The notes under the pieces are model-generated. The model searched no databases, was not told where the DNA came from, and worked only from the letters and a program-made list of their open reading frames with translations. A program made the translations under genes and the position numbers. From positions 96,001 through 160,000 of IMG/VR virus record IMGVR_UViG_3300028920_000027: DNA of 64,000 bases; one strand, given 5' to 3'. How positions within the stretch are numbered: position 1 is the first letter of the stretch; each line of letters starts with the position of its first letter. This document shows, one piece after another, positions 14,953 to 55,278 of the stretch. Origin of the DNA: a virus.

Positions 14953-16074
14953 ATGCCAGAGACTATCATCCGCTATGGGGACCTTGCCCAGCTCAGTAGG
15001 CATTACGATTTGCTGTCGAGGTGTGCCCTTGTCCGGTACGTCGAGATTCAAGACGTCGCCGATCGAGATATCCTTGCCCTGAGGATTGTGTACCGGGCCT
15101 GTGCTGAGGTGCGGGTGGAGTTGGACCACTTCGCCCAAGAAGCCAGTGGCACTATCACCCGTCTCACACGCGAACGGATCACCATGAGTATCCTTCAAAC
15201 CCAGGAAGGGCGGTCCCGCCTGGCGAGCCTGGCGGAATCATTTCGACAACAATTGGACTACGCGGGGATAGCCCGCCGTGCCCTTGTTGTCGACCCTTTG
15301 CCTGAAGGCGCGGTCCCCGTCTTCGAAGGTGATCTTGATGTTGCTCAACATGTTCTGGCAGAAGAGCACGTCTATGCCTACACCGAAGCTGAGCACGTGA
15401 ACCGTCCAGCTCCTCACCGCAACACGTTGGGCAAGTATGCCGACCTCATCACGACCGTCTTCGCGCCCGATGATCGCAACCTCTTACCCAGGAACCCCTT
15501 CGACTGGGGTTGGTGGGAAGGTGGTTGGTGGGGCGATGACGTTCACCCAGCAGGGTATTGGGTCTACTCAGATCCCTGGTGGTATCTGTGGCGCCGACAG
15601 ATTCAACAATCCGTTCTGACAGACCGAAGGATGGACAAGAGCATTCGACAAGTCACGGTGCCAATGTTCGAGATCGAATCGAGCCCCACTATAGCCATTG
15701 CGGATGTTCGAGAGCACCGCTTCAACCTCATTGAACGGCCTCAGTCGCTGACTCAGTCGCTGACTCAAACCGAGGTGGTGGGTAGGGGGGGCTACTCCAA
15801 GTCTATGGACCAGTGGCGCCCCAAGGACCGTCACTTGAAGCACTTCATGCCCATGGACCAGGAATGGCCCGAATGGGTCCAGCCAGGAGCCCATGTGCGC
15901 TCAACCTGCCCTGGTATGGGAGTGGCCACGGTCGTCGAGGTTCATAACCTCTACCTCACCCTCAACTGGAAAGGGTCCACCCAGCGGTGGTCTAAACATA
16001 CCGGGTGGTTCCACGACCACTGGCAGTATGAGGAGGCACCCCCAACCCTTTGGGAGCGTCTCAGCGCGGCTTGA
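14953..16074 (+). CDS. Mosaic protein with capsid-protein-like N-terminal segments and C-terminal TLWERL
   Basis: QTQEGRSRLA...LDYAGIARRALVVDPLPEGAVPVFEGD and VTVPMFEIESSPTI...RFNLIER recall large-phage major capsid N-terminal segments (from memory, unverified). Confidence 0.45.
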   Translation: MPETIIRYGDLAQLSRHYDLLSRCALVRYVEIQDVADRDILALRIVYRACAEVRVELDHFAQEASGTITRLTRERITMSILQTQEGRSRLASLAESFRQQLDYAGIARRALVVDPLPEGAVPVFEGDLDVAQHVLAEEHVYAYTEAEHVNRPAPHRNTLGKYADLITTVFAPDDRNLLPRNPFDWGWWEGGWWGDDVHPAGYWVYSDPWWYLWRRQIQQSVLTDRRMDKSIRQVTVPMFEIESSPTIAIADVREHRFNLIERPQSLTQSLTQTEVVGRGGYSKSMDQWRPKDRHLKHFMPMDQEWPEWVQPGAHVRSTCPGMGVATVVEVHNLYLTLNWKGSTQRWSKHTGWFHDHWQYEEAPPTLWERLSAA

Positions 16075-16372
16075 CCGTGGTCACACGACGGGCGTTGTAG
16101 GGAGTTGCCGTGACCGTCGTGGTGTTCATGGTGTCCCAAGCCCACGCATAGATGGTGCTTCCAGAGGTGTTCGTTGTGGCCGTGGGGTAGCCCTGGTGGC
16201 GGAACCGGATGGCTACTGGTATTGGGAAAGGGCCCACCGAGTAGGTGACGACTTGCTGAACCTGAGGGCGAGGTCGAAGCTTCAGCTCTTGGAGCTTGGA
16301 GGAGGGGCATCGACCGTAAGCCGCAGACGACCTGAGGGGTGAACCCCAGCTCGTCCAGAACTTGCTGTTGGG

Positions 16373-17047
16373 TCAGAGGCATCGTGCTCGATAGCGCGTG
16401 GCTACCTTCTTGGCGGTTTCGGCAGGCAGCTTCCAAATCTTGAAGAGACCCATCGTCTTGTCCTGTTTGCGACCCTTGGGGACGGGCTCGATGGTTACCG
16501 TGGGATTGCCCTTGGCATCGGCCCCGAACTCCTTGATCTTGCCCTTCTTGTTCTTGTACTTCCCATACAGGATGATGTCACCCACGTTGAATGAATATGC
16601 CTTCTTGTAGAACTTGTGAGTGAACTCCCCGCAGCCAGGGCCGAGATCCTTGCGCGGATGCTTCTTTCCTTCGTTGTCGACCTCGAAGACCATTCCCCCG
16701 TGGTAGACAAATTCCCCGGGTTTGAAGCCCTCCCCCTTGGCATCACCCTTCCCTTCATTCTTGGCAGCCAGGCGAGAAGGGCCACCCTGTTGCTTGTACT
16801 CTCGCAGCACGTCGCTGATGAACCGCGGCCACTTAGGCTCGGTCTCATCTTCCCAGTCCAGGATGCGCTGAAGCGCCTCCGTGAAGTAGGTACCGCCCTT
16901 GTGCATCCCTTGGGTGTAGCGGTCATCGAAGTCGTCAGCCAACGTGTTCGATACACCCTTTCGAGTCGGCTCAGTCTCCCACTTGCGGCAAATGCTCACC
17001 GCATGGCTGATTAGAGACTTGCGGTCGGGGAAGAGGGGGTTCGCCAC
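16373..17047 (-). CDS. Hypothetical protein with SH3/KOW-like C-terminal domain ending KVATRY
   Basis: FNVGDIILYGKYKNKKGKIKEFG; Lys-rich. Confidence 0.55.
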   Translation of the reverse strand: MANPLFPDRKSLISHAVSICRKWETEPTRKGVSNTLADDFDDRYTQGMHKGGTYFTEALQRILDWEDETEPKWPRFISDVLREYKQQGGPSRLAAKNEGKGDAKGEGFKPGEFVYHGGMVFEVDNEGKKHPRKDLGPGCGEFTHKFYKKAYSFNVGDIILYGKYKNKKGKIKEFGADAKGNPTVTIEPVPKGRKQDKTMGLFKIWKLPAETAKKVATRYRARCL

Positions 17048-17057
17048 AAGGTTCCTT

Positions 17058-17888
17058 TCAGCGGAAAGAGGTGCCCAAGGTCGGTACCCAGAAGTCTGTC
17101 GATTGTTTCCAGCTCAGGTACTCAGGCGCCATGACACAGAAGCCGTCTTCGCCCCAGCCGGGGCCCCACGAGTTCTTGATGAGAAAGCCATCAGGCACGT
17201 AGCCGATGATCATCATTGCGTGACCACCCGCGAACACATTCCCCTTGGGGCGCGGTACAGGGCCTCGCGATCGGAGCTTCATGAACTCCTTGGTCACCTG
17301 CGTACCGAAGACCACCGGGTGGTGCGACCGAAGTGCGTCGATAATCAGGTCGAGCCGGGTGTTGCCGGTTGAGGTGATGCGGTAATAGCTGTGGATGCGG
17401 TGGCCCGTGGCCTCGCGCATTGCTTTCAAGGAAGGCAGGCGGTAAAGCCGCCTCAGGTCGTAGGGCCAGATCTCCTCGGTGCAGATGCCAAACCGCTGGA
17501 GCACACAGAAGGCCAGACGAACCCATGTCCCCTCGTCGTGGTCGATGTCCCCCTTACCGTCTCTGTCGAGGTCTTGAAGGGCCCGACACATCGAGTAGAC
17601 GAAGAGGCGACTCAGCTCGACGCGCGGGCGTCCCTCGATGGCATTGACGACTTCAACGGCATCCGCTGTGGCATTGCCGACACACGAGCTGGCTCGCAGC
17701 TGGTTGGTGTCGGTCGTGAAATCGCTCAAATCGACGTAGGTGCTGTTACCCGCTCGGGTCTTGAGCAAAGCGTTGTTGAACTTGCGGTCGGGCTTTTCCC
17801 CACGTAGCTTGGGCGGGTCGGGTACGTAGCCAAATCGTTTGCCAAGTTTGCGGGCGCTGAAGTTTGGGTGCTGGGTGAGTTGTGACAT
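17058..17888 (-). CDS. Papain-like (C1A) cysteine peptidase
   Basis: QLRASSCVGNA (catalytic Cys), GGHAMMIIGY (His), FLIKNSWGPGWGEDG (Asn). Confidence 0.9.
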   Translation of the reverse strand: MSQLTQHPNFSARKLGKRFGYVPDPPKLRGEKPDRKFNNALLKTRAGNSTYVDLSDFTTDTNQLRASSCVGNATADAVEVVNAIEGRPRVELSRLFVYSMCRALQDLDRDGKGDIDHDEGTWVRLAFCVLQRFGICTEEIWPYDLRRLYRLPSLKAMREATGHRIHSYYRITSTGNTRLDLIIDALRSHHPVVFGTQVTKEFMKLRSRGPVPRPKGNVFAGGHAMMIIGYVPDGFLIKNSWGPGWGEDGFCVMAPEYLSWKQSTDFWVPTLGTSFR

Positions 17889-17944
17889 GGTCCCTCCAGG
17901 AACCCCGGCCCACAAGAAGATTCTTTCGATGCCCCCCTACCAAC

Positions 17945-18301
17945 ATGACCCCAACCATTCGCTTCGTGCCGCTACTCGTCGTGCCGCTGCTACTCACGGC
18001 GTGCCCGAAGACTGATCCCACCAAACCTCCAGTGCCGCCGCCGCTCGATCCGACAGGTACCGAGTTCTGTGCCGAGATGTGCAAGCGCATCGGGCCCGCG
18101 GGTCTCAAGTGTGAAGAGGGCGAGGACGTCTACAACTCCGACCTAGAAGGCGAAGAGGGCGTGCCTAACCAGAGCTGCACTGACTGGTGTGAAGAGCAAC
18201 AGGAACGCGGTTTCTACATCAACCCCAAGTGTGTCCGACTTGTCGAGTCCTGCAAGGAAATCGAGGACGCTCGTCAAAAGGACGAAGCCGAGTGCCCCTG
18301 A
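17945..18301 (+). CDS. Cys-rich lipoprotein
   Basis: Signal peptide with lipobox LLLTAC, Pro-rich linker, eight further Cys. Confidence 0.7.
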   Translation: MTPTIRFVPLLVVPLLLTACPKTDPTKPPVPPPLDPTGTEFCAEMCKRIGPAGLKCEEGEDVYNSDLEGEEGVPNQSCTDWCEEQQERGFYINPKCVRLVESCKEIEDARQKDEAECP

Positions 18302-18320
18302 TCCCGGTGTATCACTGGAC

Positions 18321-18596
18321 ATGGCAAGCTATGGCAAGTACCGTGAAGAGGGCTCCATCATTCTCGTCGAGATCCTGTCAGACAAGACCAACGACAATGG
18401 TCGAGAGGTCGAACTCAAGTGTCTCCAGGTCATTCGGCCCGTGAGAGGCGGGGTGCCACTCCCCAACCCTGACCCCATCGTCGGACAGGTGTGGAGCGTT
18501 TGGGCAGGTCCTGGGTCCGGACCCTATTGTGGGTGGAGCCTGGAAGTTCTCGAAGCTGGCGCCCCCGAATTAAAAGGTCTACCCAAGGCCGGCTAG
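18321..18596 (+). CDS. Hypothetical protein
   Basis: ATG 5 nt after GGTG-TATCAC. Confidence 0.55.
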   Translation: MASYGKYREEGSIILVEILSDKTNDNGREVELKCLQVIRPVRGGVPLPNPDPIVGQVWSVWAGPGSGPYCGWSLEVLEAGAPELKGLPKAG

Positions 18597-18608
18597 ACTG
18601 AAGTTATA

Positions 18609-18908
18609 GTGCTCAACTCCACCCGCCCCATCATGATCGTCCACGAAGGGCAGAACCGACTCACCCGTCACCGATGGGTGTTCGAGCTGGAAAGCAGCCG
18701 ACTCGTGTTAGTGCGCTACCACTACGAGATCCGGCGCAAGATCGAGAGTCCCTGGGGTCTACGCAAGTTCTACGAAGCCAACCCCACGGGAGCCTACGGG
18801 GACTGGGAGTGGCTCAAGATCGACGACGTGCCTTGGCCCTCCGAATTGGAGCAAGAAGCCAAGGAGAAAATCTTGGAGGGGCTGGTCGTTTTACGACAAG
18901 TCGCTTGA
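18609..18908 (+). CDS. Hypothetical protein, probable paralogue of 14569-14874
   Basis: Shared residue pattern. Confidence 0.55.
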   Translation: MLNSTRPIMIVHEGQNRLTRHRWVFELESSRLVLVRYHYEIRRKIESPWGLRKFYEANPTGAYGDWEWLKIDDVPWPSELEQEAKEKILEGLVVLRQVA

Positions 18909-18990
18909 CGCTTGACGGTGTAGAGTGAAGAGAGCCCGCCGCCCCGATGCACTCCCCCCTCGGTGCACGGCAAGAGCGGCGGTGCTCATC

Positions 18991-19539: not shown

Positions 19540-19616
19540 GAAGAATCACTAGTACCGGAGTACCAGAAGTAGCCACGCCCCCCGCGGGGACCATACCCAC
19601 CTTTGAACCAGACATC

Positions 19617-19757
19617 CTAACTGCGAGTCAGTTCACCAATCACGTGCGAAATCTCCAGGCCCGTCATATCGCCTTTGAGCCTCTTCCGAAGCACGGCTAT
19701 CGGGATGCCAGGGTTGTCACGAATGACCTCGTAGACCGCTCGCTGGTGAAGGTTCAT
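19617..19757 (-). CDS. Small winged-helix-like protein
   Basis: QRAVYEVIRDNPGIPIAVLRKRL. Confidence 0.45.
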   Translation of the reverse strand: MNLHQRAVYEVIRDNPGIPIAVLRKRLKGDMTGLEISHVIGELTRS

Positions 19758-19788
19758 GCGGCTTCGTCCCAATCGTAGCGAATCTTTT

Positions 19789-20654: not shown

Positions 20655-20659
20655 CAGGT

Positions 20660-21340: not shown

Positions 21341-21637
21341 ATGACTGACCGACTCCGCATTGTGACCCGCGCTGATCTCGCGCATGGCTCCCGCGCCGTG
21401 CAGGCTGTCCACGCCATGCGCGAGTGGGTCGACCAGTATCCGATCCTCGACCAGGAGTGGTACGAAAAGAGCAACACGATTGCCTTGCTTGAGGTTCCGA
21501 ATGAGTCTAAACTGCGCGCCCTATTGGAGCGCGCAACAGAACGGGGAATCCCTGTTGCATCGTGCTCAGTCCTGGGCGTGATGCTCGGCGGCTGTGCTCA
21601 TCCCTTCCCTTGGCTCTCAAGTTCGATGCCCCGGTAG
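21341..21637 (+). CDS. Peptidyl-tRNA hydrolase PTH2-like protein, C-terminus possibly damaged
   Basis: LRIVTRADLAHGSRAVQAVHA...SNTIALLEVPNE...GIPV; expected EPD-type C-terminal motif absent. Confidence 0.6.
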   Translation: MTDRLRIVTRADLAHGSRAVQAVHAMREWVDQYPILDQEWYEKSNTIALLEVPNESKLRALLERATERGIPVASCSVLGVMLGGCAHPFPWLSSSMPR

Positions 21638-21700
21638 CTCAGTTGGCAGAGCGGCTGGATTCTAACCCGGTGTGCGCAGGTTCAAGCCCTGCCTGGGGCG
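21628..21700 (+). tRNA. tRNA with 8-nt anticodon loop ATTCTAAC (Arg TCT, CTA or quadruplet TCTA)
   Basis: GCCCCGG/CTGGGGC acceptor, canonical D and T arms, stem GCTGG/CCGGT. Confidence 0.7.
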
Positions 21701-21704
21701 CTTT

Positions 21705-21780
21705 GGAGGTGTAGCTCAGTGGTAGAGCGCGGCCCTGTAAAAGGGGCTGATGTCGCGTGGTTCGATCCCACCCACCTCCA
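21705..21780 (+). tRNA. tRNA with expanded anticodon loop CTGTAAAAGG (Tyr/Thr-like, undetermined)
   Basis: GGAGGTG/CACCTCC acceptor, TAGCTCAGTGGTAGAGC D arm, TTCGATC T loop, stem CGGCC/GGCTG. Confidence 0.65.
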
Positions 21781-21815
21781 CTCTTTGAAAAAGTCGCGGG
21801 CGTTTTTTGATCCGC

Positions 21816-24213: not shown

Positions 24214-24287
24214 GTCCCCGTAGCTCAATCTGGCAGAGCACCCGCTTCTAGTTCGGGTTGTTGCAGGTTCAATTCCTGTCGGGGGCC
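24214..24287 (+). tRNA. tRNA with CTA anticodon (amber-suppressor-like)
   Basis: GTCCCCG/CGGGGGC acceptor; arm CCCGC-TTCTAGT-TCGGG; T arm GCAGG-TTCAATT-CCTGT; own GGTG-TAGAGT promoter at 24177. Confidence 0.7.
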
Positions 24288-24290
24288 CCC

Positions 24291-25547: not shown

Positions 25548-26434
25548 CCCATCTTTTTCAGCTCCTTTGCCATGTCACATTCATCGCCGGGGAGCATCGA
25601 TCGGGGCTCAGGCTCGGGCCCCTCATCCGATTTCATCAGCGCCTTGACGTGGGTATGTGCCGGGCTGCGGAACCGACTTACCTCGTCGGCCCCCTCGCGT
25701 TGAGCAGACCACACCACAATCGACGGAATATCACCAGGAGAAGTAGACTTCTCGATGTCAACCTGTCTCACGACGTATGAGACAGGTTGGTTCGTGACCA
25801 TGCGTCGCCTGGCGTCTCTCACCGGGTTCGACATGAACACCACCATGCCAACCGTCAGCCGTTCGACAGGAAGGTGCACGACGGTGGAGGGGCCCACCGT
25901 GGTCTCGCTCTTCAAGTGGTTAGCGATCTCTCCAGGAAGAGGTGTGTTCCCCCGCTTCGTGCCCGGCTGGGTCGGCGTGATGAACGTTCGGGATAGGACC
26001 TGGGTTCCTTCCTGCGCTTTGACGTCTTCAGCCAGCCTTGCCTGCGATTGTTCCAGCGTGAAGGGCTGTACGCCCATGAGTTGCAGCTGCCCTCTCCAGA
26101 AGAGTCGGCGAACGCGCGAAAGGTCCGAGCCGGAGCCGGGGTCGTGGGCGCCCAATTGGTGAGCTTGGTGGAAGAATCCTGTACCCGGGATCCCCGTGTC
26201 GTGGTTAACCACAACTGCTGTGGTTAACGGGCGACCTCGGGTGTGGTCTTCCTCGGCAATCATCGCGAGGGCATCAGGAAGGCTGCACCCCTTGGGAGTG
26301 TCCTTCAGGGCGTCGGCGATGGCACCATAGGTGGTGAGCAGCTTGAGGTGGTGGGCGAAGTAGTGGACAATCCCTCGAACCTGGGCAGCGTAGACAGCTA
26401 CCCGCACGTCATCGTGCAGACCTTCGATAGGCAT
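25502..26434 (-). CDS. Hypothetical protein
   Basis: Long ORF; N-terminal TTYGAIAD...RGRPLTTAVVVN...GIPGTGFF block. Confidence 0.55.
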   Translation of the reverse strand: MPIEGLHDDVRVAVYAAQVRGIVHYFAHHLKLLTTYGAIADALKDTPKGCSLPDALAMIAEEDHTRGRPLTTAVVVNHDTGIPGTGFFHQAHQLGAHDPGSGSDLSRVRRLFWRGQLQLMGVQPFTLEQSQARLAEDVKAQEGTQVLSRTFITPTQPGTKRGNTPLPGEIANHLKSETTVGPSTVVHLPVERLTVGMVVFMSNPVRDARRRMVTNQPVSYVVRQVDIEKSTSPGDIPSIVVWSAQREGADEVSRFRSPAHTHVKALMKSDEGPEPEPRSMLPGDECDMAKELKKMGYGVSPDGEKQAEVK

Positions 26435-26513
26435 GATGCCTCCTGATTGTGAGCGCCCGCCAGTTTGTGCGGGCCGACACGGGACCATCCCCGCGGCACT
26501 CAAAGCCAAAGCA

Positions 26514-26948
26514 TCAAAGGATCCTCAGCGTAGAGTCCACCCACGCTACCCAATCGACGAGGCGGTAGAAGCGTTGACCCTCGATGTAGTCCAGCACGCG
26601 CCTGAGGCTCCACGGCTTCCAGTCTGGGTTGTCCCAACGCATGGGCTCGGAGTCATAGGCACGCCACTCGTTGAGTTTCCAGTTCCAGCCCACCTCGGGG
26701 CGGGGGGCACTGGAGTCAGCCCCTTTGCAGAAGACAATAGTCCTGAAGGTAGGCATCCTCGCCGGCAGCTCCATGTTCAGCGCTCGCCTCTTCAAAAGGT
26801 AGCGTGAGTAGCTGATGAGAAGCTCGATCTCTGCCGCGGTCGGCATTCGACTCCCCTGATCAAGGCAGATGAGCCAAGGGATGGACACCCGCGGTGGAGC
26901 CACTGCGATTCCCATCTCCCTCAGTCTCTGCTCTTGGGTTGGAGTCAC
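26514..26948 (-). CDS. Hypothetical Trp-rich protein
   Basis: GTG 6 nt after GGTG-TAGACT. Confidence 0.55.
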   Translation of the reverse strand: MTPTQEQRLREMGIAVAPPRVSIPWLICLDQGSRMPTAAEIELLISYSRYLLKRRALNMELPARMPTFRTIVFCKGADSSAPRPEVGWNWKLNEWRAYDSEPMRWDNPDWKPWSLRRVLDYIEGQRFYRLVDWVAWVDSTLRIL

Positions 26949-27271
26949 CCCTTCAGTCTACACCACGGGCCGGAACGTGGGAGTCTGACAAATGGCGAGA
27001 ACAACTCCTGCGTGCCTTCACGCCCACAGCATGGCAACGCCTGATGTAGGTGAGCCGCCATCACGAGGTGGGCCCGTGCGGCGGCTCAGCATTAGGCACA
27101 TCCCTCCAAAGGAGTTTTGTCTTTCCCTCCAGAAGTCGTGTCTGGGACTATTCTACACCAGTCCCGACTTATCGGTCCATACAGAACGGCTTGCGAGCAC
27201 AGTCGGGGCAAATGCGGCTCACCTGCTCCCGGGTGAGCAGGGGATCAGCTGAGGCTACCTTCTGCTTGACC

Positions 27272-27556
27272 ATGCCTCTCCTGGACATCAAAACTTCTGC
27301 CACTCACCTACACTCACTTATATTTACCCACACTAATGGCAGATTCTTTGATGAACCACTCTGGGAAGACATGAGACCTCCAATTGCTTTGAACCAGCCA
27401 CAGCTTCCCTACCGCGTCGTCCGGAAGCGGGTTCGTTTCAGCGATGGGACCACGAAGGTTTTTCCTGTCAAGGTCTACAAGTTCCCTCAGGACGGAGGCA
27501 CCCCTCTCAAGGTGCTGCCCTCAGAGTACGGGTTGGGGGACGCTTTCAGCTTTTGA
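27272..27556 (+). CDS. Hypothetical protein
   Basis: Open ORF before the HD gene. Confidence 0.4.
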   Translation: MPLLDIKTSATHLHSLIFTHTNGRFFDEPLWEDMRPPIALNQPQLPYRVVRKRVRFSDGTTKVFPVKVYKFPQDGGTPLKVLPSEYGLGDAFSF

Positions 27557-28149: not shown

Positions 28150-28513
28150 GGGCGAAGGGGTGGTCTACCCTCGGCGCACGTTCACCCTGAAAGCCGATGA
28201 CCTCATCATTGGTCGGGTTGGAATTCGCTGTGCCGAGGAGCACGTGCGAGCGCTGCTGAAAGCGCTGCTCAAGGGCGGTTTCAAGGTTGAGCCTGGGCCG
28301 TCGGTGGATCCCTCCAAGTGTGCCGACTGCTCAGGCTACGTGCCGATGTACGTGGTGGGAGACGAGGTCTGGGCCAAAGCCATCGCCACGAAGCCTGCCC
28401 GATTCCTTTGCCTGAGTTGTCTGGAGCAACGTCTCGGGCGCCTACTACTGTTCCAGGACTTCCCTGAAGCTAACCCCACCAACCAAGCCATACACTACTT
28501 GAGGCCCCGGTGA
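28139..28513 (+). CDS. Hypothetical zinc-finger protein
   Basis: CADC...VWAKA...FLCLSCLEQRLGR. Confidence 0.6.
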   Translation: MLNRGEGVVYPRRTFTLKADDLIIGRVGIRCAEEHVRALLKALLKGGFKVEPGPSVDPSKCADCSGYVPMYVVGDEVWAKAIATKPARFLCLSCLEQRLGRLLLFQDFPEANPTNQAIHYLRPR

Positions 28514-29025
28514 AACGTCGTCTATTCCTCGAACGAGTCGACACCAAAGAAGTGCACATCGCCCACGTCACGGGTTCGGTGATGGTATGGGAAGAAGGCG
28601 ACTGGAGACCACTCGGCAGTGGGGTGTCGAGGTTAGACACCACAGGTACTTATATTATCGCGCCCTTGGTCGAGATTCTTCCCCTCAAGCCCAGCTTGCG
28701 GGAAGCTCGGAAGTGGGAAGGGTATAACGACAAATGGCACGGCCTTCGCGCCCGCGCCGCGCTCTGGGACCAACAGAGGTATGACTACGTGACCTCCTGC
28801 ATGGGCCTCTTGGCTCAGTCGTGGAACTTCGTCCTCTCTTGGAACCGCAAGCTCCCTCAAAGCATCGCTCTGGTTGCCATCCAACATGACGTCGTGGATT
28901 ACCAAGACCCGGGGCACGCACCGAACTGGGTCGAGATGCTGCGGGATGAGTTCGCGAGGCAATCGAAGACCGTTCAGCCCCACCAGCTTTCCTTCTGGGA
29001 ACGTATCGGCAAGGGCGAGTTCTGA
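28510..29025 (+). CDS. Hypothetical protein ending SFWERIGKGEF
   Basis: GTGA overlap; C-terminal WER motif. Confidence 0.6.
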   Translation: MKRRLFLERVDTKEVHIAHVTGSVMVWEEGDWRPLGSGVSRLDTTGTYIIAPLVEILPLKPSLREARKWEGYNDKWHGLRARAALWDQQRYDYVTSCMGLLAQSWNFVLSWNRKLPQSIALVAIQHDVVDYQDPGHAPNWVEMLRDEFARQSKTVQPHQLSFWERIGKGEF

Positions 29026-32664: not shown

Positions 32665-33475
32665 ATGAACACCATCGTCATCGGCGACATTCACGGCTGT
32701 CTGGACGAGTTTCAAGCACTCGTGGAGAAGGTCGCCCTCAAGCCCGAGGACCATGTGATCTGCCTGGGCGATTTCATGGACAAGGGGCCGGACCCTGCCG
32801 GTTGTGTGCGGTTCGCGCGTACGCATGGGTTCCAGTCTGTCCAAGGCAACCACGAGGACAAGCACCTCCGCTGGCGGCGTCACGAAGCCCGCAGGATCCT
32901 GGATCCCTCCTACACAACCCCATGACGTTGGATGTTGCCAAACAGCAAGACAATACCGCTCTGAGCGGCGACGACATCGACTGGCTCAGTAACCTGCCCC
33001 CATCGTCGAGGCTGATGGTTGGGTGGCCGTCCACGGCGGCTTTCTACCAGGCAAGACCCCACGGGAACAGGCCGCTGACCGCAAGATCCGCTCGACCATC
33101 GTACGCGTGAGGTGGCTCACCCCCGAAGGCGAGCACTGGGCCGAGTTATGGGACCAGCATTTCAACGTGGTCTACGGCCACGAGGCACACAGCCTCAGCC
33201 GCCCCTACGACGTCCAAGCCCCCAGCGGCGCCCGGACCGTGGGTATCGACACGGGCTGTGTCCACGGGGGCCACCTGACCGCCTTCGTGGTTGAAAACGA
33301 CGGGGCCACCCACTTCGTCCAGGTGCCGGCGGCCAAGTGCTACCACCGACACCACGGGCTACGGGCTAGACGCTCCCACAGGGTGGGGGGCGGGAAGGGT
33401 GGCACCCCCACGGGAGTGTGGGGTTGCGGGGTAGACGTAGGTTGCAGGCATCACAGGTTGTCGAGCGAAACATAG
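32665..33475 (+). pseudogene. Calcineurin-like metallophosphoesterase (ApaH/PrpA-like), split by two frameshifts
   Basis: IGDIHGC, CLGDFMDKG, GNHE in frame 1; WLSNLP in a second frame; VHGG, VYGH, IDTGCVHGGHLTA in a third. Confidence 0.8.
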
Positions 33476-34029
33476 ACAGTTTGGCAATGATTGCAACGTT
33501 GAACGTCCACGACCTGGATACCCCCAACATCAATTCCGAGACTTCGCAGGGCGGTGAGGTTGACCAGCGACGGGTCCGAAAGAAGCAGCCCGTCCCGGCA
33601 CCGCGAGCATTGTATGGGCGAGCGAGAGTCCTCTTCGGTAGGATATCGAATGAGGCTCTCAAGCCCTTGCACCTGGGCCACCTCGGGCGGCTCCAGAGAG
33701 CCCAGCTGGAGGCATGAGGGCTCGATTCCCACCAGACGCTCGAAAAGCGTTGGCAGAAACGGGGTTGGAGGGTCGAAGATAGGCTCGTGTTTGACCTCAG
33801 GTTCGGACTCCAGAGCCCGTTCGGCTTCACGCCAGGGAGCCACCCAGGAGTTAGCGCGGGTGGTGGTACCGTCGTTGCCACCATCCAAAAAAAGGTCACC
33901 ATCTTGTGAGGAGATGGCCCCGCAGTGCGAGCACCAAACGATGTCAGTACCTTCAACGTAGCGAAGGTGGGCAGGATTGTGGAAGCACTCCGGCACGACT
34001 CCTGGGAAGATACACCAATTGGTGTACAT
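33451..34029 (-). CDS. Hypothetical protein with Zn-ribbon CxxC pairs and internal PTLFERL
   Basis: WCSHCG, CSRC, CNHC. Confidence 0.5.
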   Translation of the reverse strand: MYTNWCIFPGVVPECFHNPAHLRYVEGTDIVWCSHCGAISSQDGDLFLDGGNDGTTTRANSWVAPWREAERALESEPEVKHEPIFDPPTPFLPTLFERLVGIEPSCLQLGSLEPPEVAQVQGLESLIRYPTEEDSRSPIQCSRCRDGLLLSDPSLVNLTALRSLGIDVGGIQVVDVQRCNHCQTVYVSLDNL

Positions 34030-37997: not shown

Positions 37998-38336
37998 TTA
38001 GCCCTCTGACAGGCGTTCCCACGCCGTTTTGACTGGGCCCGGGACTTCGGCCTGCTCCGGGGTCTGCACGGCCTCCAGAAGGGTGTGGCCGGCCTTTTGG
38101 ACCCTCTCTCGCTTAGATCGTTCCTCCTGGACTTCTCGCTCAGCGCGCTGAGCCCTTCTCTGGCACGCTTGAAATTCGCGATTCAGGTCGTGCCCCACCT
38201 TTCGCAGACGTTCGATTTCGTTGCGGGACCACCTCAGCTCTTCCTGCTTGTGTATCTTCGTTTGGCGGTACCACCGGTACTGGAGCGCCAGGACAACGGC
38301 GATGGTAGTGGCACAGGTGACTTCGAGAATAGACAC
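37998..38336 (-). CDS. N-terminal TM + coiled-coil protein ending TAWERLSEG
   Basis: Paralogue of 39084-39395. Confidence 0.65.
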   Translation of the reverse strand: MSILEVTCATTIAVVLALQYRWYRQTKIHKQEELRWSRNEIERLRKVGHDLNREFQACQRRAQRAEREVQEERSKRERVQKAGHTLLEAVQTPEQAEVPGPVKTAWERLSEG

Positions 38337-39083: not shown

Positions 39084-39395
39084 CTAGCCTTTCCGCAACC
39101 GCTCCCACGCGGTCAAACGGACGGACTCGAGAGCCTTCTTCGGCGGGGGCTCGGGCCCTTCGGGAACCTCTGGTCGATTCGCCAGCTCCTGCTCGAGACA
39201 AGTCCTGAGCTCGGCGTACTGGATGCCCATGGATTGCAGGCTCGTGCGCAACTGAGCCTCGTTCTTCTTCAGTGCTGTGATCTCTGAACGGAGGCGGCCC
39301 CGCTCCTCTTGCCGCTTGAGGCACCAGCAGTACTGGATACTGATGATGAGCAGCTCGGCGATGACCACGGCTGTGAGGAGTTGGGTCAAGGTCAT
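39084..39395 (-). CDS. N-terminal TM + coiled-coil protein ending TAWERLRKG
   Basis: Paralogue of 37998-38336; GGAG RBS. Confidence 0.65.
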   Translation of the reverse strand: MTLTQLLTAVVIAELLIISIQYCWCLKRQEERGRLRSEITALKKNEAQLRTSLQSMGIQYAELRTCLEQELANRPEVPEGPEPPPKKALESVRLTAWERLRKG

Positions 39396-40835: not shown

Positions 40836-41177
40836 TTGACCATCCGTTTTGGCCCCAACCTTGTCTACCCCAGCGACCGCCAGGGGGGTCGGTACCAAGA
40901 GTTTCAAGGGACCGCTATTGAGGTCGATGAGTGGGAACCTCACGAGCCCGGAAGCCGGATTGCCAAAAGAGCCGTTCGAGTTGTAGTCAAAATCCCCGGC
41001 GAAGAGCAGACATACGCCGGGTATACCGAGGCCCCACCTCCAGTTGGTGCGACCGTGACCATTCGGGTCTATGACTGCGGTGGGGGCTGGTACCCCGATA
41101 GTCGTATCCAAGGGTGGTCATCACCCCGGCCACGAAAGACCTTTTGGGAACGTTTGAATGGTGCACAAAGTTTCTGA
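40836..41177 (+). CDS. Hypothetical protein ending KTFWERLNGAQSF
   Basis: C-terminal WER motif. Confidence 0.55.
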   Translation: MTIRFGPNLVYPSDRQGGRYQEFQGTAIEVDEWEPHEPGSRIAKRAVRVVVKIPGEEQTYAGYTEAPPPVGATVTIRVYDCGGGWYPDSRIQGWSSPRPRKTFWERLNGAQSF

Positions 41178-45906: not shown

Positions 45907-47105
45907 TCCTAGAGACCTTGTATGAATTTGCCAAGCTGCATGGACTCGTGCCCAGCGTGCTTCGGAAACGACACGCCAATTACACTTTCCACCTCGATCC
46001 GAAGGGGTGTTTGCGTGAGTTCTCTGACGAGCGACAAGTGATGGCAGACGCGAAGGCCAAACGGTCCAGCAATATCCAACCCAACTTGCTCGACAATGTG
46101 GGGTACACATTCGGTTTGGGCAAGCATGGACCCAAACGACAGGAAGCCTGGTTGGAGGCCCTACGCGCCTTCAAGTCCATGGCGCCGGTTGCAACCTTCG
46201 CTCAAAAGCCTCTACCTGATGGCATCCTCAAGATTCTTGCCAAAAACTCGTCCAAGGTTGTGGCCTTCACCGTGGGAGGGGAGTCCCCCTATGAACACCC
46301 TGACATCGTTGAGCACCTGAACGCTCAAGAGGAAGGTGACTACATCTGCCGCATCACTGGACGGAGCTGTAGTCCAGGATTCGTCCCCAACATCAGCAAC
46401 CTACCCCCCAACGGAAGCTTGCAGAACTTCGTGGGGTTCAATGCGTCCGCTACACAGTTCGATGGGCGTGAAAACAAATGCTGCTTTGTCATGCATCGCG
46501 AAGTTCGCGAAGGCATCATTGCAGCCATTGACCATCTCGCGCGCTATGAGAACAAGGAGCGCCCGTCGGCCATCGTTGCAACGAAGCGCTTTCACTCCAA
46601 GAGTGAGGTAAACTCTGCTCGGAGTGGGCCCGTCCCCACGACTCTGCTCTTCTCCCTGGAACCAGAGTTCGACGTTAGCCCTCTGATGGTCCTGCTTAGG
46701 GGGTTGAGGTCAGAAGGGGAAACCCCAGAGGAACGACTGGAGGAAGGTCGACAAGCTCATAAGGCTGCCCTGGAAACCCTGGTCTCATGGACGGGCTACT
46801 CTGGGGATCTCTATGCTCTGACCCTTTGCGCTGACGGGGCCTGCCGACGGACGGCTGTACTGGACTTCACTACCATCCCTCTAGCAGAGATCCCGGCTCG
46901 GATGGAGTCGTTCACTCATGCATCTGGCCCGTACCCCCTACGCTGGCGGCTGGCCGAAATGCCCAACTACACGCTCGCGTGGCGCTTCATGCGGGCTGTC
47001 TTGGCCGGTGACCCTCTACCTCCCGCAATCCTGGCACACGCACTTCGGCAGCCGCTCAAGAACGAGCAGCTGTTGACCACTCTCACAGCTTTTCAAAGCC
47101 TTTAG
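45903..47105 (+). CDS. cas8c: Cas8c large subunit (N-terminal part only)
   Basis: MILETLYEFAK...RSSNIQPNLLDNVGYTFG; ATGA overlap with cas5; ~400 aa, shorter than typical Cas8c. Confidence 0.75.
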   Translation: MILETLYEFAKLHGLVPSVLRKRHANYTFHLDPKGCLREFSDERQVMADAKAKRSSNIQPNLLDNVGYTFGLGKHGPKRQEAWLEALRAFKSMAPVATFAQKPLPDGILKILAKNSSKVVAFTVGGESPYEHPDIVEHLNAQEEGDYICRITGRSCSPGFVPNISNLPPNGSLQNFVGFNASATQFDGRENKCCFVMHREVREGIIAAIDHLARYENKERPSAIVATKRFHSKSEVNSARSGPVPTTLLFSLEPEFDVSPLMVLLRGLRSEGETPEERLEEGRQAHKAALETLVSWTGYSGDLYALTLCADGACRRTAVLDFTTIPLAEIPARMESFTHASGPYPLRWRLAEMPNYTLAWRFMRAVLAGDPLPPAILAHALRQPLKNEQLLTTLTAFQSL

Positions 47106-47119
47106 CCAAAGAGGACCTA

Positions 47120-47596
47120 ATGCCTGAAACCACCCCTGAAACCACCCCTGAAACCCCAACCACTCCGACCAATGGTCACAGGATTTCAGAAAAAAGGCTG
47201 GCCCAGCTAAGACACCCCAACCCGACCTTTCACCTGGGCCGTGCCATGGCTCGTGCTGTGGTCATCTACAGGTACGCGCAAGGCAGTGCCGCAGCAGCAT
47301 CCCTGGAGAATAAGGTCGTGTCCGCGGGGTCTCGCCCCTTGGAAATCGTTACCCAGATTCTCAACCGGACTCAACGAGCCATCGCGTACTTGAGTCGTGG
47401 GGAGGCCCGCCAAGGGGCGGCAATCGACATCCATAACTATGAAGAAGCAGTGGAGTTGATCGATGCCCAAGCGCTGCCCCGCACGTTCCAGGCGCAGGAC
47501 CAGGTCCTGTTCTGGAACGGGTACAACAGCGAGAAGAATTGCATCCGCGCCCGACAACGTATTCAGGCTGCGGAATCGGCAAACAAAGGGGGCTAA
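47120..47596 (+). CDS. cas11: Cas11c small subunit encoded as a separate gene
   Basis: PTFHLGRAMA...LPRTFQAQDQVLFWNGY resembles the Cas8c C-terminal domain; own GAGGA RBS; different frame from cas8c. Confidence 0.7.
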   Translation: MPETTPETTPETPTTPTNGHRISEKRLAQLRHPNPTFHLGRAMARAVVIYRYAQGSAAAASLENKVVSAGSRPLEIVTQILNRTQRAIAYLSRGEARQGAAIDIHNYEEAVELIDAQALPRTFQAQDQVLFWNGYNSEKNCIRARQRIQAAESANKGG

Positions 47597-47646
47597 CTCT
47601 CCCTGCGGATTGACTCTCACCATCAGGGGCGACCCTGCGGATTGAC
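47585..47646 (+). repeat. Two degenerate CRISPR-repeat-like units between cas11 and cas7
   Basis: AGGGGG-CTAACTCT-CCCTG-CGGATTGAC and CAGGGG-CGA-CCCTG-CGGATTGAC; exact 14-nt direct repeat CCCTGCGGATTGAC at 47601 and 47633. Confidence 0.55.
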
Positions 47647-51252: not shown

Positions 51253-51361
51253 GGTAGCGAGGGGTTCGGTGATACCGAAACCCCCAACACCTCTCGCAGC
51301 CCAAATTTTCAAGGGGGTTCCCACCCCCTTGGTCTTTGACAGCACATAACCGCTCGCATCC
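51253..51361 (+). promoter_or_regulatory. Truncated CRISPR leader of array 2
   Basis: GCGAGGGG..CCCC..ACCTCTCGCA..GGGGGT..CTTTGACA as in leader 1, but only ~20 nt before a 5'-truncated first repeat. Confidence 0.6.
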
Positions 51362-51934
51362 CAATTCTTGCCCTTGAGGATTCCAACAGCTCCTCCAGAA
51401 CACCCGGGGCGAGTCGGCCGTACAGGAACAAGGGCAATTCTTGCCCTTGAGGATTCCAACCACAACTTCGAGTTGGTTCACTACGGGGAGGGGCAAGGGC
51501 AATTCTTGCCCTTGAGGATTCCAACCATGGTTCGGCGAACGAACTTGCATTTCTCGTACTGCGGGACAAGGGCAATTCTTGCCCTTGAGGATTCCAATGA
51601 TCTGCTGTGAGACAAAGCTAAAATGCCCTCTCTGAAACAAGGGCAGTTGCCCTTGAGGATTCCAACATCGCCCACGAGACCAAGGCAGACTTCGACGAAT
51701 GGCAAGACAAGGGCAGTCCATGCCCTGAGGATTCCAACGTGGCTCCCGCGACCCGGTCGAACACCTCGAGGAAGGAGACAGTCTTGGCCCTTGAGGATTC
51801 CAACCTGCGGTAATGGCACAAGCAGACGTTTTACCGTCGTGAGACAAGGGCCTTGCCCTTGAGGATTCCAACATCCAAAACCACTCTGGGAGCTACGGCT
51901 ACATCGTATGTGTCTTTGCCCTTGAGGATTCATG
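51362..51934 (+). CRISPR. CRISPR array 2: ~9 repeats, consensus near GGGACAAGGGCAATTCTTGCCCTTGAGGATTCCAAC, 8 spacers, increasingly degenerate 3'
   Basis: Repeats enumerated directly; CAAGGGC/GCCCTTG hairpin; 29-37 nt unique spacers. Confidence 0.93.
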
Positions 51935-52138
51935 AGGGAGAATCCCGCGACCGGTGTATAGTTCTGCTCAGGCCATGCTGACGTTGGCCTGCACCCCTGA
52001 GCCCGGCACCCCACGGCGGGCTCCCTCAACGGGGCGAAGAGGGTCCGAAACGCTCTCACTGCCGGTGTTGGTGATTCCATTCCCGAGTGGAGTCCGGCGT
52101 GGGGGCGGGTGCCACTCGGTCGAAGTGGAGTCCACAAC

Positions 52139-52912
52139 ATGACCAACTCTCGCAAGCAGCGGGCCAAGAAGCTCGCGAAGAAGCTCCGCATTTCCCACCA
52201 GGGCGCCACCAACCTCATGCGCCAGCAGCAGGACCAAGACCTCCGGGACGCGCCCCCGTGGTACCTTCGCACATTCGAGGTTCGCGAAAACGGTCAACTG
52301 CTTCCACTTCCGCCCACATCCTACAGCGAGATGCTGGAGCAGATCCGCGTCTTCATGGTTGCTAACTCCGATTACCAGCTGTCCCTTGCGGACGAGCCCC
52401 TCGGCTTGCGAGAGGTTCTACGCCGCAGCGCCCTGGCCACGAGTCGTTTCAACAAGGGCCTGATCTTCGAGGTCGAGGGCTCGCAGCTCCTAGCCGAGCC
52501 CGCAGGAGAGTGGTCCGATCAAAAAGCTCCCCACACCAAGCTTCAAGACAAGATCGAAGCCGCTCTCAAGGACGTCAACGTTTTTGCAACGCCAACCTAC
52601 ACGGAGATTCGGTTCGAGAACGCCGACGGTAGTCTCTGGGGATCCACGTCCGAGTGGGCACCTGAGGTCACGGCCAAAACGGACACCCTGCTCCAACGCA
52701 AGATGTGGGTCATCCGGCGGGCGTGGACCATATACCGTAACCAGGTCTCACGCCACGAGGCTCCGGAAGACCGCCGCTACGACCAACCCGATCCCGAAGA
52801 TCGAAAGGAGCGGGAGACCCTCTGGGAGGCTCGCAGTACCTGGTACAGGGAGGGGGTGTTCGAGCGCTTTGGGCACCCCGCACGCATCGTGCTTCAGCCG
52901 AGCACCCTTTAG
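52139..52912 (+). CDS. Hypothetical protein
   Basis: MTNSRKQRAKKLAKKLRISHQGA start; long ORF. Confidence 0.6.
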   Translation: MTNSRKQRAKKLAKKLRISHQGATNLMRQQQDQDLRDAPPWYLRTFEVRENGQLLPLPPTSYSEMLEQIRVFMVANSDYQLSLADEPLGLREVLRRSALATSRFNKGLIFEVEGSQLLAEPAGEWSDQKAPHTKLQDKIEAALKDVNVFATPTYTEIRFENADGSLWGSTSEWAPEVTAKTDTLLQRKMWVIRRAWTIYRNQVSRHEAPEDRRYDQPDPEDRKERETLWEARSTWYREGVFERFGHPARIVLQPSTL

Positions 52913-53453
52913 ACAATCCCCAAGCCGTTGCCAACGAACTCGTGTCCCGGACCCACCGGATCCGAAACCTTACTGTTGATGAGCTTCAGCGAGACGCCTG
53001 GAGCCCGTACCGGGTCCAAGGCCCCAATGGCTGGATGGGGTGGGCCGCACCCGACGGGCACTGCCACGTCAGCGAGGATCGCACCTCCGTGTGTGTCTAC
53101 TGGTGCCCAGCCTGCCGCGCGGACCAACCCCAATGAATGACCCCTGTCCCCTGTGCCGACGGGGGGGCAGGGTCCCCGGTCCGCGCCTACAAGACCAAGA
53201 TGTACAGGATGTGTCCCCGTGTGCTCCTCAAGTGCACCAGCTGTGGCTATGAGTGGTTCGGGTACGCCAAGAAGCGAATCCGTTAAGGCGAAGGGGGCAG
53301 CCGCCAGGTTGACTCCAGAACTACTAGAGTACTCAGTTTGGATCAACCCTTTACTCCATGACTTTTGAGTTTCCGACCTCCGCGGCGTACAGTGGTGCAT
53401 GAGGTCACGAATGACTGAACGTTTCCAAGGATCACATCGTATGGGGGAGTATC

Positions 53454-53717
53454 ATGGCAACTCTCACTGAGATGAACGCTGAACACAACCTCTTGACCAA
53501 GGCTTTTGATCTGGTCAAGCCCTCGACGCACTGGAAGGACGTTATCAGTGCCTATGTCCCGGCCCACGCTCTGGTCGAGGCTGGGGTCACCATCGAAGAC
53601 GTCGCCCGTGCGGTGATCCACTTCACTGCGACCGAGGCTGATGTCAATCCCTTGAGCATGGGCGCTTTCTTCGTCCAGGCCAAGGGTTACCGCGCCGGGC
53701 CGGCGGGAGACCACTGA
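53454..53717 (+). CDS. Small hypothetical protein
   Basis: GGAG RBS; AFDLVKPSTHWKD...FTATEA...QAKGYRAG. Confidence 0.6.
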   Translation: MATLTEMNAEHNLLTKAFDLVKPSTHWKDVISAYVPAHALVEAGVTIEDVARAVIHFTATEADVNPLSMGAFFVQAKGYRAGPAGDH

Positions 53718-53718
53718 A

Positions 53719-54006
53719 GTGCAGATCAAGTTCACTGTTCACCGGGACGGTCACATTTCCAGAGAGGTCGTCGAACGGCCCTTCACGTTGGCGCTTGATG
53801 TCTTGCGCATCACTCGCCCCACGGATGACCGCATCAAAATGGTCTCTCCGGCGCCACAGCCTACTCCCACCCCGGCGCCCAAGCCCACCCTCCGGGCTGT
53901 CTCCTACCATGGGGTCCCTTTGGGGTACATAGACGACTTTCCAATTGAGGTTCAGCACGCTTTGGATGCCCTTGAGGTTGATGGTGACCATCAAAACTGC
54001 TGGTGA
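53719..54006 (+). CDS. Hypothetical protein
   Basis: Coupled to the upstream gene. Confidence 0.45.
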   Translation: MQIKFTVHRDGHISREVVERPFTLALDVLRITRPTDDRIKMVSPAPQPTPTPAPKPTLRAVSYHGVPLGYIDDFPIEVQHALDALEVDGDHQNCW

Positions 54007-54304
54007 CCTGGTTATGGCCCTCGATCAGGGGGAGTTCAGCAGCATAGGGTCCTACCCCCTCTACTTCATCACCTCGAACGAGGATTGCCTGCACCCCAAG
54101 TGCGTGCGCGAACTTCTCGACCCCGACCAGACGGGCCTGGGCGTGCGCGAACTCCTCGATACCCGTGACCCTGCTGAGGCGACCACGGTCGACGAGTGGA
54201 AGATTATCTCGCACGGAATCAACTGGGGCATTCCCGACCTCTACTGCGCCCATTGTGGCGCGCGCATCGAATCTGCCTGTGAGGAGCAAGCCGATGATTC
54301 TTGA
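53984..54304 (+). CDS. Hypothetical protein with CxxC pairs
   Basis: GSYPLYF...CLHPKC...LYCAHCGARIESA. Confidence 0.55.
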   Translation: MTIKTAGDLVMALDQGEFSSIGSYPLYFITSNEDCLHPKCVRELLDPDQTGLGVRELLDTRDPAEATTVDEWKIISHGINWGIPDLYCAHCGARIESACEEQADDS

Positions 54305-54650
54305 GCGAGCAGAAGCCTGGCATGTCCGGGATACTCACACCGACGCCCAATACCTCGTGCAGTTCTGGGACACCCATCAGGAACGGCATGGTCGACGTCG
54401 CATGGCCGTGGCTGTGTTCCGTCAGAATCCAACCTTCCCATCCAACTACCACCTCATCCAGCGCACTCGTGTCTGGCCCATCCCTTCGTTGTCGTGCGAC
54501 GGCCCCGAAGTCGCCACCTACGTTGTCAGTGAAGTGACTTGGGAAATCCTCGACGACTACGTTCCCGAAAAGGACCTTGATGTCTCTCTTGAATCCGTCG
54601 AGAACCTTGGCGAGATCCACCTCACCCACAACCTGTTCAAAGCACCGTGA
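54294..54650 (+). CDS. Hypothetical protein
   Basis: Operon-like overlap. Confidence 0.5.
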   Translation: MILERAEAWHVRDTHTDAQYLVQFWDTHQERHGRRRMAVAVFRQNPTFPSNYHLIQRTRVWPIPSLSCDGPEVATYVVSEVTWEILDDYVPEKDLDVSLESVENLGEIHLTHNLFKAP

Positions 54651-54862
54651 AATACCAACTTCATGAGAAGTGCCCCGCCTGTGAACGAACGCGTACGGAC
54701 TCCGGCGTGTCCGTTGCTGAAACCGTGGCCATGCACAACCCCGACACCACGGACCTGAACGCCCGCGCCACGCTCCGGTGCCGCGCCTGCGGGCACACGT
54801 GGGAAGGTCACACCACGAGCCCATATACCCAGAGAATGCGCCGACGAGGGAGAATCCGATGA
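54647..54862 (+). CDS. Small zinc-ribbon protein
   Basis: CPAC...CRACGHTW. Confidence 0.55.
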   Translation: MKYQLHEKCPACERTRTDSGVSVAETVAMHNPDTTDLNARATLRCRACGHTWEGHTTSPYTQRMRRRGRIR

Positions 54863-55278
54863 ACACCAAGCTAATGCCTAGAGCGGAACAATCACAGCGG
54901 CTTACTCTCATCGCGCAGAAACTGCGAGGGGTGGACCGCCGGGATCCCGTCGTGGATGAGTTCGTCGATCTTCTGAGCCGCCACCTAGCCACTACTTGCG
55001 ATCTCAGCATTAGAGACCGAACTCTGACCCTGGTGCTCTTGCCTCTCAGAGGCGCCCCCACGCCCCGGAAGCGAACCCCTCATGGGGTGAGCCACTCCAT
55101 GGATCAGATCTTGATCGTCGATCCCGAGAGCTTTCGGGTCATCGAGGTCATCAAGGACTGTTTTGGCCGGACCAGACCGGGGGATCCCGTGTACCAGGGA
55201 GACTTTATTCGGCTGGGACGGGCGCGGCTGGCCGAGGAAGCTCGGCCTACCTTGTGGGAGCGGCTCGACGAGGAGTAG
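54859..55278 (+). CDS. Hypothetical protein ending PTLWERLDEE
   Basis: ATGA overlap; C-terminal WER motif. Confidence 0.6.
   Translation: MNTKLMPRAEQSQRLTLIAQKLRGVDRRDPVVDEFVDLLSRHLATTCDLSIRDRTLTLVLLPLRGAPTPRKRTPHGVSHSMDQILIVDPESFRVIEVIKDCFGRTRPGDPVYQGDFIRLGRARLAEEARPTLWERLDEE

Follow-up and report, generated by a model that had tools for sequence, protein, structure and literature searches.

Tails read by AAA+ proteins include ssrA, the ClpX-binding tail of SspB, and the MIM helices read by the MIT domain of Vps4. In phage T4, the proteins gp43, gp55 and gp33 (the last being a sigma-4 mimic, according to the review) have interchangeable hydrophobic-acidic C-termini, borne on divergent flexible linkers, for a single hub, gp45 (PMC2988020). 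Encapsulin cargo-loading peptides and the C-termini of HK97-type scaffolds are linker-borne C-terminal peptides by which unrelated cargo is attached to a shell of the HK97 fold (PMC8346489, PMC11664910). The Rubisco-binding motif of the pyrenoid, [D/N]W[R/K]xx[LIVA], is helical, occurs at exact C-termini with a carboxylate behind it, and is sufficient for targeting; it is found on unrelated soluble and transmembrane proteins, and holds the compartment via one multivalent hub, Rubisco (10.1101/2020.08.16.252858). Here, we analyse a C-terminal tag with the core [ST]-x-W-E-R-[LIV], found on many proteins of a stretch of 64,000 nucleotides of viral DNA (hereafter the window), which corresponds to bases 96001-160000 of the single 182,335-bp viral contig IMGVR_UViG_3300028920_000027. 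The tag cannot be filed under the T4 clamp epitopes, the encapsulin peptides or the pyrenoid motif, even if these three are the nearest in logic. We found no description in the literature of this motif, or of shared tags in huge or jumbo phages.

Results

A C-terminal tag kept at the protein level

The contig is linear according to IMG/VR and about 38% complete by the CheckV estimate. Its major capsid protein (MCP) recurs at 89-94% identity in hundreds of 300-530 kb contigs of IMG/VR, and the contig is thus part of the genome of one member of a large clade of huge phages. We compared it with five relatives whose genomes were fetched whole or nearly whole (G002 to G006), and searched their protein tails de novo. 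Together with the contig itself (G000), which has the P-T-L-W-E-R-L form of the tag, they make up the six-genome set used below. We call the form of the tag in a given genome its flavour.

A previous reading of the window, made from the sequence only, had reported six proteins with this ending. All six C-terminal peptides are present and translate exactly as quoted, but they undercount the tag, of which the contig holds about 20. A six-frame scan gave 29 matches to W[ED]R[LIVM] in the contig, about 20 of which sit 0-14 residues before the stop of open reading frames (ORFs) of at least 75 aa, and about 20 contig ORFs of at least this length have [ST]-x-W-E-R-[LIV] as their ending, with 0-14 residues behind it. 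The tagged genes include a near-unbroken run at 172-182 kb of the contig, and the share of phage proteins carrying the tag is 5-10%, with about one protein in ten as our estimate for this phage. The regular expression proposed in the sequence-only reading ([TS].W[ED]R[LI].{0,8}$) matched 15 of the called proteins, while 300 shuffles within proteins gave 0.01 matches (never more than 1). Similarly, 18 proteins have W[ED]R[LIV] within their last 20 residues, where shuffles predict 0.18, whereas elsewhere it is found once in all 46,588 interior residues and once among the stretches made of the first 20 residues.

The codons of the tag vary freely among synonyms: CGC, CGG, CGT, CGA, AGA and AGG for Arg, CTC, CTA, CTG, CTT and TTG for Leu, and GAA and GAG for Glu, so that the six Arg and the five Leu codons are each drawn from both codon families. 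The DNA flanking the tag shows no conservation. Together, the codon spread and the unconserved flanks indicate that selection acts on the peptide and not on the DNA, which upholds the protein-level conservation claimed from the synonymous codons of the first six examples. The codon spread also rules out a DNA-level signal as the origin of the tag. Hidden paralogy is ruled out as well, because the bodies of the carriers, once stripped of their tags, show no BLASTP similarity to each other, and the carriers are thus mostly unrelated, as had been reported. The tag might still be thought an artefact, caused by chance, by a DNA signal read through translation, or by hidden paralogy, but nothing beyond the shortness of the motif speaks for this. 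Given the shuffle controls, the synonymous codons and unconserved flanks, the absence of paralogy among carriers, and the recurrence of the tag in relatives, we regard an artefact as extremely unlikely. We conclude that this huge-phage clade has a genuine system of C-terminal tags, which departs strongly from chance and is maintained at the protein level.

The tag has a regular format, in which a linker rich in Pro, Lys and Arg leads to the core [ST]-x-(W/F/Y)-[DE]-[RH]-[LI]-[LM], itself followed by a short acidic tail. The Pro-rich or flexible linker noted previously is confirmed by a Pro content of 11%, against 5.6% in the bodies of the carriers, and Lys and Arg are enriched too. Among all carriers, the tail behind the core contains 27% of Asp and Glu and most often has 3-7 residues. 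The core can be read as an N-capped amphipathic helix of one to two turns, in which the S/T-x-x-[DE] capping box would cap the helix, and the aromatic residue and the Leu or Ile would share one face. Across flavours, Leu and Arg seem to swap between core positions two and five (T-L-W-E-R-L versus S-R-F-D-L-I), which would lie on the same helical face. A membrane-targeting amphipathic helix of the MinD/FtsA type is unlikely, because such helices are basic-hydrophobic and loosely conserved, whereas the tag is short, near-invariant and followed by an acidic run.

Tag flavours in related genomes

The general form [ST].[WF][ED].[LIVMF] is found in 10-33 tails per genome in the six-genome set, against 1-4 expected from the interior rate. 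Its flavour is P-T-L-W-E-R-L in G000, T-x-W-[ED]-R-[LI]-L-acidic in G002 (with about 30 carriers), [ST]-x-W-[ED]-H-[LM]-[LM] in G005, [ST]-R-F-[ED]-R-[ILF] in G004 and G006, and S-R-F-D-[LM]-[IM] in G003, where SRFD is present in 7 tails and nowhere else. These flavours map onto the core-genome tree built from 41 core families, (G000,G002), G005, (G006,(G003,G004)), which indicates that they were passed on by descent and changed further on individual branches. No G000 carrier has a homologue in G002, and 87 of the 113 loosely defined carriers lack homologues in any of the six genomes. Judging from these comparisons, the tag outlives the proteins bearing it.

Five genomes share one orthologous family of carriers, about 170 aa long, and each of its copies bears the flavour of its own genome. 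A profile search of 1.84 billion representatives retrieved 205 members of this family, 139 of them full-length. Nearly all the full-length members have a Pro/Lys-rich linker, the core [ST]-x-(Y/F/W)-[DESTN]-[RH]-[LI]-[LM] and an acidic run, the latter often with D-P-F-[GE]-D, and retention of the tag on this orthologue spans about 139 lineages (counted as cluster representatives). The gene for the 170-aa protein is always followed by one for a Cys-rich protein of about 210 aa with a C-x-x-G-C-x-x-C-C-like motif, and the two form a conserved pair (G002 46432-47609, G003 209802-210991, and orthologues).

These patterns (a near-invariant peptide on a flexible leash, borne by unrelated proteins and changing jointly within each genome) favour a docking tag. 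The xWERL peptide is probably a selected short linear motif, by which its carriers share one docking or address signal for a single reader that evolves along with it. Nearly all the proteins that it would bring to this reader are small and fast-evolving accessory ones, with genes in variable and non-structural regions of the genome, and the binding site of the reader would drift together with the tag in each phage lineage. The shift of flavour by genome, even on one orthologue, is what a linear docking signal with one co-evolving partner predicts. The sequence-only reading had proposed such a signal, and the near-invariant C-terminal peptide, the unrelated carriers and the genome-wise flavours match its prediction; the docking itself, like the helix, the binding and the single reader, is something we infer and did not observe. 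Since flavours differ even between sister phages, the putative reader is more likely to be phage-encoded than to be a conserved host hub.

Several points weigh against a docking tag with one reader. The tag was lost or gained between some orthologues, such as G002_397 and G003_124, or G004_382 and G006_040, and is therefore not essential to every carrier. The carriers could also use the peptide independently, in contacts with membranes or nucleic acids, without a common reader. Our search for the reader, described below, gave leads and no binding partner. Finally, the gene calls are home-made, which makes the carrier counts approximate.

When IMG/VR was scanned for DNA coding exactly for PTLWERL, it gave 19 single matches and only one relative with in-frame tags, and exact-pattern scans were abandoned as a route to relatives because the motif is too lineage-specific. 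The 170-aa family, used as a reporter of flavour in IMG/VR, gave only 8 loci, and the 20-kb flanks of 80 loci of the protease discussed below contained too few tags to inform on their flavours.

Some other proteins have endings that resemble the tag. A protein of about 390 aa, missing from this fragment (G002 L157:430-1605, plus strand), with a tail-terminator or neck-like fold and a disordered C-tail, ends in G-R-N-x-x-[FY]-E-R-I-x in 119 of 120 homologues. This likeness is probably coincidental, because the ending does not change in step with the flavours of the tag. The head-tail module encodes a 95-aa core protein (L026:4635-4922, minus strand; genome 44635-44922) with the conserved end [FY]-[IV]-E-R-[LM]-F-[DE]-[DE]-x-G-x-P-L-K, another E-R-L-acidic C-terminus that is independent of the tag's variation. 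The cultured Bacillus phage G (NC_023719, L324-L348) encodes 27 proteins ending in Y-W-K-E-N-D-R-Y-L-x-K-I-L, with DRYL present in 18 tails and nowhere else (for example at 26153-27432 and 352560-370448). Most of these carriers are a tandem array of paralogues of about 200 aa, and the phage G case is thus partly a gene family and not a pure tag.

Carriers of the tag

Carriers occupy the variable part of the genome, outside the syntenic structural and replication block at 0-80 kb. They include two membrane anchors, an MCP-like protein, a protein resembling sigma region 4 and a radical-SAM enzyme, a diversity that fits an address better than a catalytic element. Ten carriers have no convincing Pfam or PHROG family, and one of 323 aa has no homologue among 5.8 billion proteins.

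The MCP-like carrier (14953-16074, plus strand, 373 aa) ends in PPTLWERLSAA-stop at 16039-16074. Two of its stretches resemble the N-terminal part of the phage's own MCP. It matches the major head protein family phrog_2522 (E=1.6e-13, residues 68-137) and, by BLASTP, the contig MCP at genome 24881-25759, and MCP-like paralogues with the tag are also present in G002 and G004. The two membrane anchors are encoded on the minus strand. The one at 37998-38336 (112 aa) has an N-terminal transmembrane (TM) helix, a coiled coil and a Pro-rich linker, and ends in VKTAWERLSEG-stop at 37998-38033; its matches to Rz-like spanins are weak and of the kind typical for coiled coils. The one at 39084-39395 (103 aa) has a TM helix, a coiled coil and a PEGPEPPP linker, and ends in RLTAWERLRKG-stop at 39084-39119. 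The two had been described as paralogues, but BLASTP finds no similarity between them at E<=0.01, and by sequence what they have in common is an architecture (TM helix and coiled coil) and not detectable paralogy. Basic residues come after the TM helix, so that by the positive-inside rule the C-termini of both, and hence their tags, are probably cytoplasmic.

Many non-structural genes have a GGTGTAnnnT motif 15-18 nt before the ATG, with 58 copies in the contig (for example at 14926, 38354 on the minus strand and 39413 on the minus strand of the window). It resembles a promoter of mRNAs that have a short leader or none. The motif precedes several carriers, as well as the ligase, GroEL and other replication, accessory and non-structural genes, and is nearly missing from the structural module (0-60 kb). 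In the two TM carriers, the motifs GGTGTAACTT (ORF 37998-38336) and GGTGTACCTT (ORF 39084-39395) lie 18 nt upstream.

These observations bear on the possibility that the tag is a head cargo-loading peptide, docking on the inner face of the HK97-fold MCP or on a scaffold, with the carriers packed and injected with the DNA. As in encapsulins and HK97-type scaffolds, the peptide is C-terminal and placed on a flexible linker of unrelated cargo, an HK97-type shell is present, and one carrier family is a paralogue of the MCP. The MCP itself (292 aa; L025:4881-5759, minus strand; genome 24881-25759) is 91-97% identical across genomes, whereas other core proteins are 30-70% identical, which points to unusually strong constraint and would fit a protein with many partners. 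Moreover, a putative scaffold beside the protease has a conserved C-terminal L-S-x-L-W-N-S-A-P-D-V. Yet, the tagged genes are in variable non-structural regions, 85-160 kb from the MCP and with a different upstream motif, several of them behind GGTGTAnnnT, and two carriers are membrane-anchored. Genomes with MCPs more than 91% identical also differ in their tags, W-E-R-L in one and F-D-L-I in another, and the tag is thus variable where its supposed dock barely changes. Encapsulin peptides are of a Gly/Ser/Leu type, which the tag sequence does not resemble. The position of the tagged genes, the class of their promoters and the membrane anchors of two carriers thus speak against the capsid, one of the partners offered in the sequence-only reading, and we consider cargo loading quite unlikely.

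A 96-aa carrier outside the window (genome 163314-163604) resembles the region-4-like part of a sigma-type protein of the phage. This recalls gp33 and raises the question of whether the tag is a sliding-clamp-binding tail, as in gp43, gp55 and gp33 of T4. The format is the same, with a short hydrophobic-acidic C-terminal epitope placed by divergent unstructured linkers on unrelated phage proteins, and the phage encodes the clamp-loader subunits tau/gamma, delta and delta'. However, we found no recognisable clamp of the beta or gp45 type: searches of up to six genomes with PF00712, PF02767, PF02768 and PF09116 returned nothing where the controls were detected, although a host clamp is possible. 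Pol III alpha was not found in this contig or in the five relatives either. No replication protein is tagged, the ligase, RecA, RecD2, the clamp-loader subunits and a flap-nuclease fusion all having other C-termini. The presumed clamp-contact loop of the delta subunit is M-S-F-D-like and gave no match to the tag, and the tag does not fit the clamp-binding consensus Q-L-[SD]-L-F. Finally, T4 has three clients, all in replication and transcription, and encodes its hub, whereas here there are 20-40 mostly ORFan clients per genome, too many for a clamp. A clamp-binding tail is therefore very unlikely. The clamp-loader genes are at L026:9107-11881 and L027:11717-13627 (genome 49107-51881 and 71717-73627), and the tau/gamma subunit contains an intein and a LAGLIDADG domain.

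The remaining carriers of the window listed in the sequence-only reading are two ORFans and one ORF on the plus strand. The ORFan at 28510-29025 (171 aa) ends in QLSFWERIGKGEF-stop at 28984-29025 and has no Pfam or PHROG family, and the one at 40836-41177 (113 aa) ends in RKTFWERLNGAQSF-stop at 41133-41177. The ORF at 54859-55278 ends in RPTLWERLDEE-stop at 55243-55278; its start is uncertain (54778, 54859 or 54931), which gives a length of 115-166 aa.

The internal LPTLFERL that had been reported is also present, as residues 92-99 (33733-33756) of the 192-aa ORF at 33451-34029 on the minus strand, after a Pro-rich DPPTPF. Past the TGA stop of this ORF (33453-33451), the frame extends over 37 codons (33340-33450, minus strand) that encode a Pro-rich linker and PPTLWERLARSPWCRW-stop. 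The extension may result from a very recent nonsense mutation or may allow low-level read-through, making a tagged isoform. It is the sole convincing stop-then-tag case in six genomes, and we dropped read-through as a general route of tag addition for this reason.

Thirteen tRNA genes lie at 209-2201 (minus strand), 21628-21781 (plus strand) and 24214-24289 (plus strand) of the window. One of them has the anticodon CTA, that of an amber suppressor (labelled Pyl by ARAGORN), and an odd one has an anticodon called as the four-base 'tcta'. Wholesale TAG recoding is not evident, as the structural genes are open under table 11.

Candidate readers

We ranked the candidate readers by placing a papain-like protease before a Cdc48-like AAA ATPase, and the latter before the J-protein or GroEL chaperones. 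The protease/chaperone class, one of those suggested in the sequence-only reading, is the sole class of partners with a lead, and the lead is weak. It comes from a co-variation screen of the 86 families common to five or six genomes, which were aligned and searched for columns that are acidic where position five of the tag is Arg, but not in G003, where it is Leu or Met, or in G005, where it is His.

The screen ranks first a papain-family cysteine protease (17058-17888, minus strand, 276 aa), which has the expected Cys, His and Asn and matches PF00112 above the cut-off (E=2.5e-13). It belongs to the C1 family, its best solved relative is xylellain (3ois, E=2.5e-21), and it is a core gene of the clade. 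It is also the sole family of the 86 with a bimodal pattern of identity, 50-62% within G000, G002, G004 and G006 and 30% to G003 and G005, whereas the other families are even. In the former four genomes the enzyme is of a derived type 1, which carries an acidic insertion (DxDxDG-like) close to the predicted substrate cleft and has an Asp or Glu just before the G-T-(W/Y/F) wall; the canonical type 2 of G003 and G005 has Ser or Ala at this position, which we take to lie near the S3/S2 subsites of papain. Both type-2 genomes are those without Arg at core position five, and they are independent cases because G004, the sister of G003, has type 1 and Arg tags. In four other genomes whose tags have Arg (G001, G007, G010 and G011), the type-2 protease is missing. 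Overall, the protease is present in the tag-bearing G000-G007, G010 and G011, and its subtype matches the Arg position of the tag in 10 of 10 genomes (Fisher, 1/45), a figure that reflects two independent changes and ignores phylogeny, while some type-2 carriers are tagless. The protease is a lead as reader of the tag, and not a finding.

This lead makes it conceivable that the tag is a degron or processing signal, by which a phage proteolytic or unfolding machine, made of the papain-like protease and possibly of the Cdc48-like AAA ATPase, removes, activates or clears accessory proteins at a set time of infection. It would be a special case of the single reader, with cleavage or turnover of the carriers, and not their localisation, as the outcome. 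In addition to the distribution of protease subtypes, such a role is suggested by the preference of the papain family for hydrophobic residues at P2, which would suit the invariably hydrophobic residue after the Arg of the tag. The relatives also encode a core AAA ATPase (present in G002-G006), closest to the D2 domain of p97/Cdc48/VAT (E=1e-26), and in AAA+-read degrons and adaptor tails it is likewise a short C-terminal peptide that is read, by the N-domain of an unfoldase. Yet, the tag has no sequence match to the motifs of this kind and the ATPase is linked to it as a candidate only. The ATPase lacks a HbYX tail and is weakly flagged by co-variation (4 columns against 0.7 expected, not significant once corrected for 86 families). 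As for the protease, its family is widespread in viral contigs, and several of the type-2 carriers G020-G025 are without such tags. Furthermore, some tags stop at the Leu or Ile or one residue past it (PTLWERL-stop, SRFDLIG-stop, TRFERI-stop), leaving nothing to cut if Leu were at P2. With two independent changes in the sample and phylogeny ignored, we hold a degron or processing signal to be possible, though rather unlikely.

The J-domain protein (7944-9707, minus strand, 587 aa; PF00226 E=2.4e-7 at residues 43-92) is a weaker candidate reader, as a co-chaperone. Only its J-domain region finds relatives in other genomes, the rest being fast-diverging. It is adjoined by two sigma-like proteins (weak region-4 and region-2 matches) and an N6/N4 DNA methylase, at 9704-10564, 10588-11823 and 5732-7108, all on the minus strand. 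Further core candidates are GroEL and a vWA protein (genome 77387-78934). For the latter, a MoxR-type ATPase partner was sought with PF07726, which had no match in five genomes; PF07728 was not searched.

A 273-aa all-alpha peptidase with an HExxH motif (L027:13840-14661, minus strand; genome 73840-74661) was rejected as reader because it is missing from the tag-bearing G003 and G005. Its H78, E79 and H82 are invariant. Its AlphaFold2 model has a predicted local distance difference test of 95, and Foldseek retrieved nothing for it from the PDB at E<=0.001, the weak top rows being membrane proteins. The protein may be a membrane metallopeptidase of new fold.

Discussion

Among the described systems, the pyrenoid motif has a Trp/Arg/Leu motif at the C-terminus, a carboxylate behind it, and membrane anchors as well as soluble proteins among its carriers, all of which the tag has too. 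The pyrenoid motif is, however, eukaryotic, with another spacing of residues and a known reader, Rubisco, and the likeness is one of logic and not of homology. By analogy, the tag could be the sorting code of a structure built by the phage within the cell, in which one multivalent hub, possibly an unannotated core protein, would gather its clients into a viral factory. The clients would be the membrane anchors, the capsid-like protein, the sigma-like factor and dozens of fast-evolving effectors, and the dedicated papain-like protease could edit or release them. We consider such a factory code an unlikely extension of the docking tag.

A docking or address tag with one co-evolving reader, which we favour, would make the reader accessible. 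Lineage-specific flavours and one orthologous reporter protein mean that it should be findable by co-variation and testable with peptides, and the tag would give a handle for pulling out its partner. The tag might also be of use as a portable module for targeting. Huge phages contain hundreds of dark-matter genes to which no function is assigned, and a shared tag would sort such genes into one functional class. Such an address code, made of a peptide and spanning the proteome, would be the first to be described for a bacterial virus.

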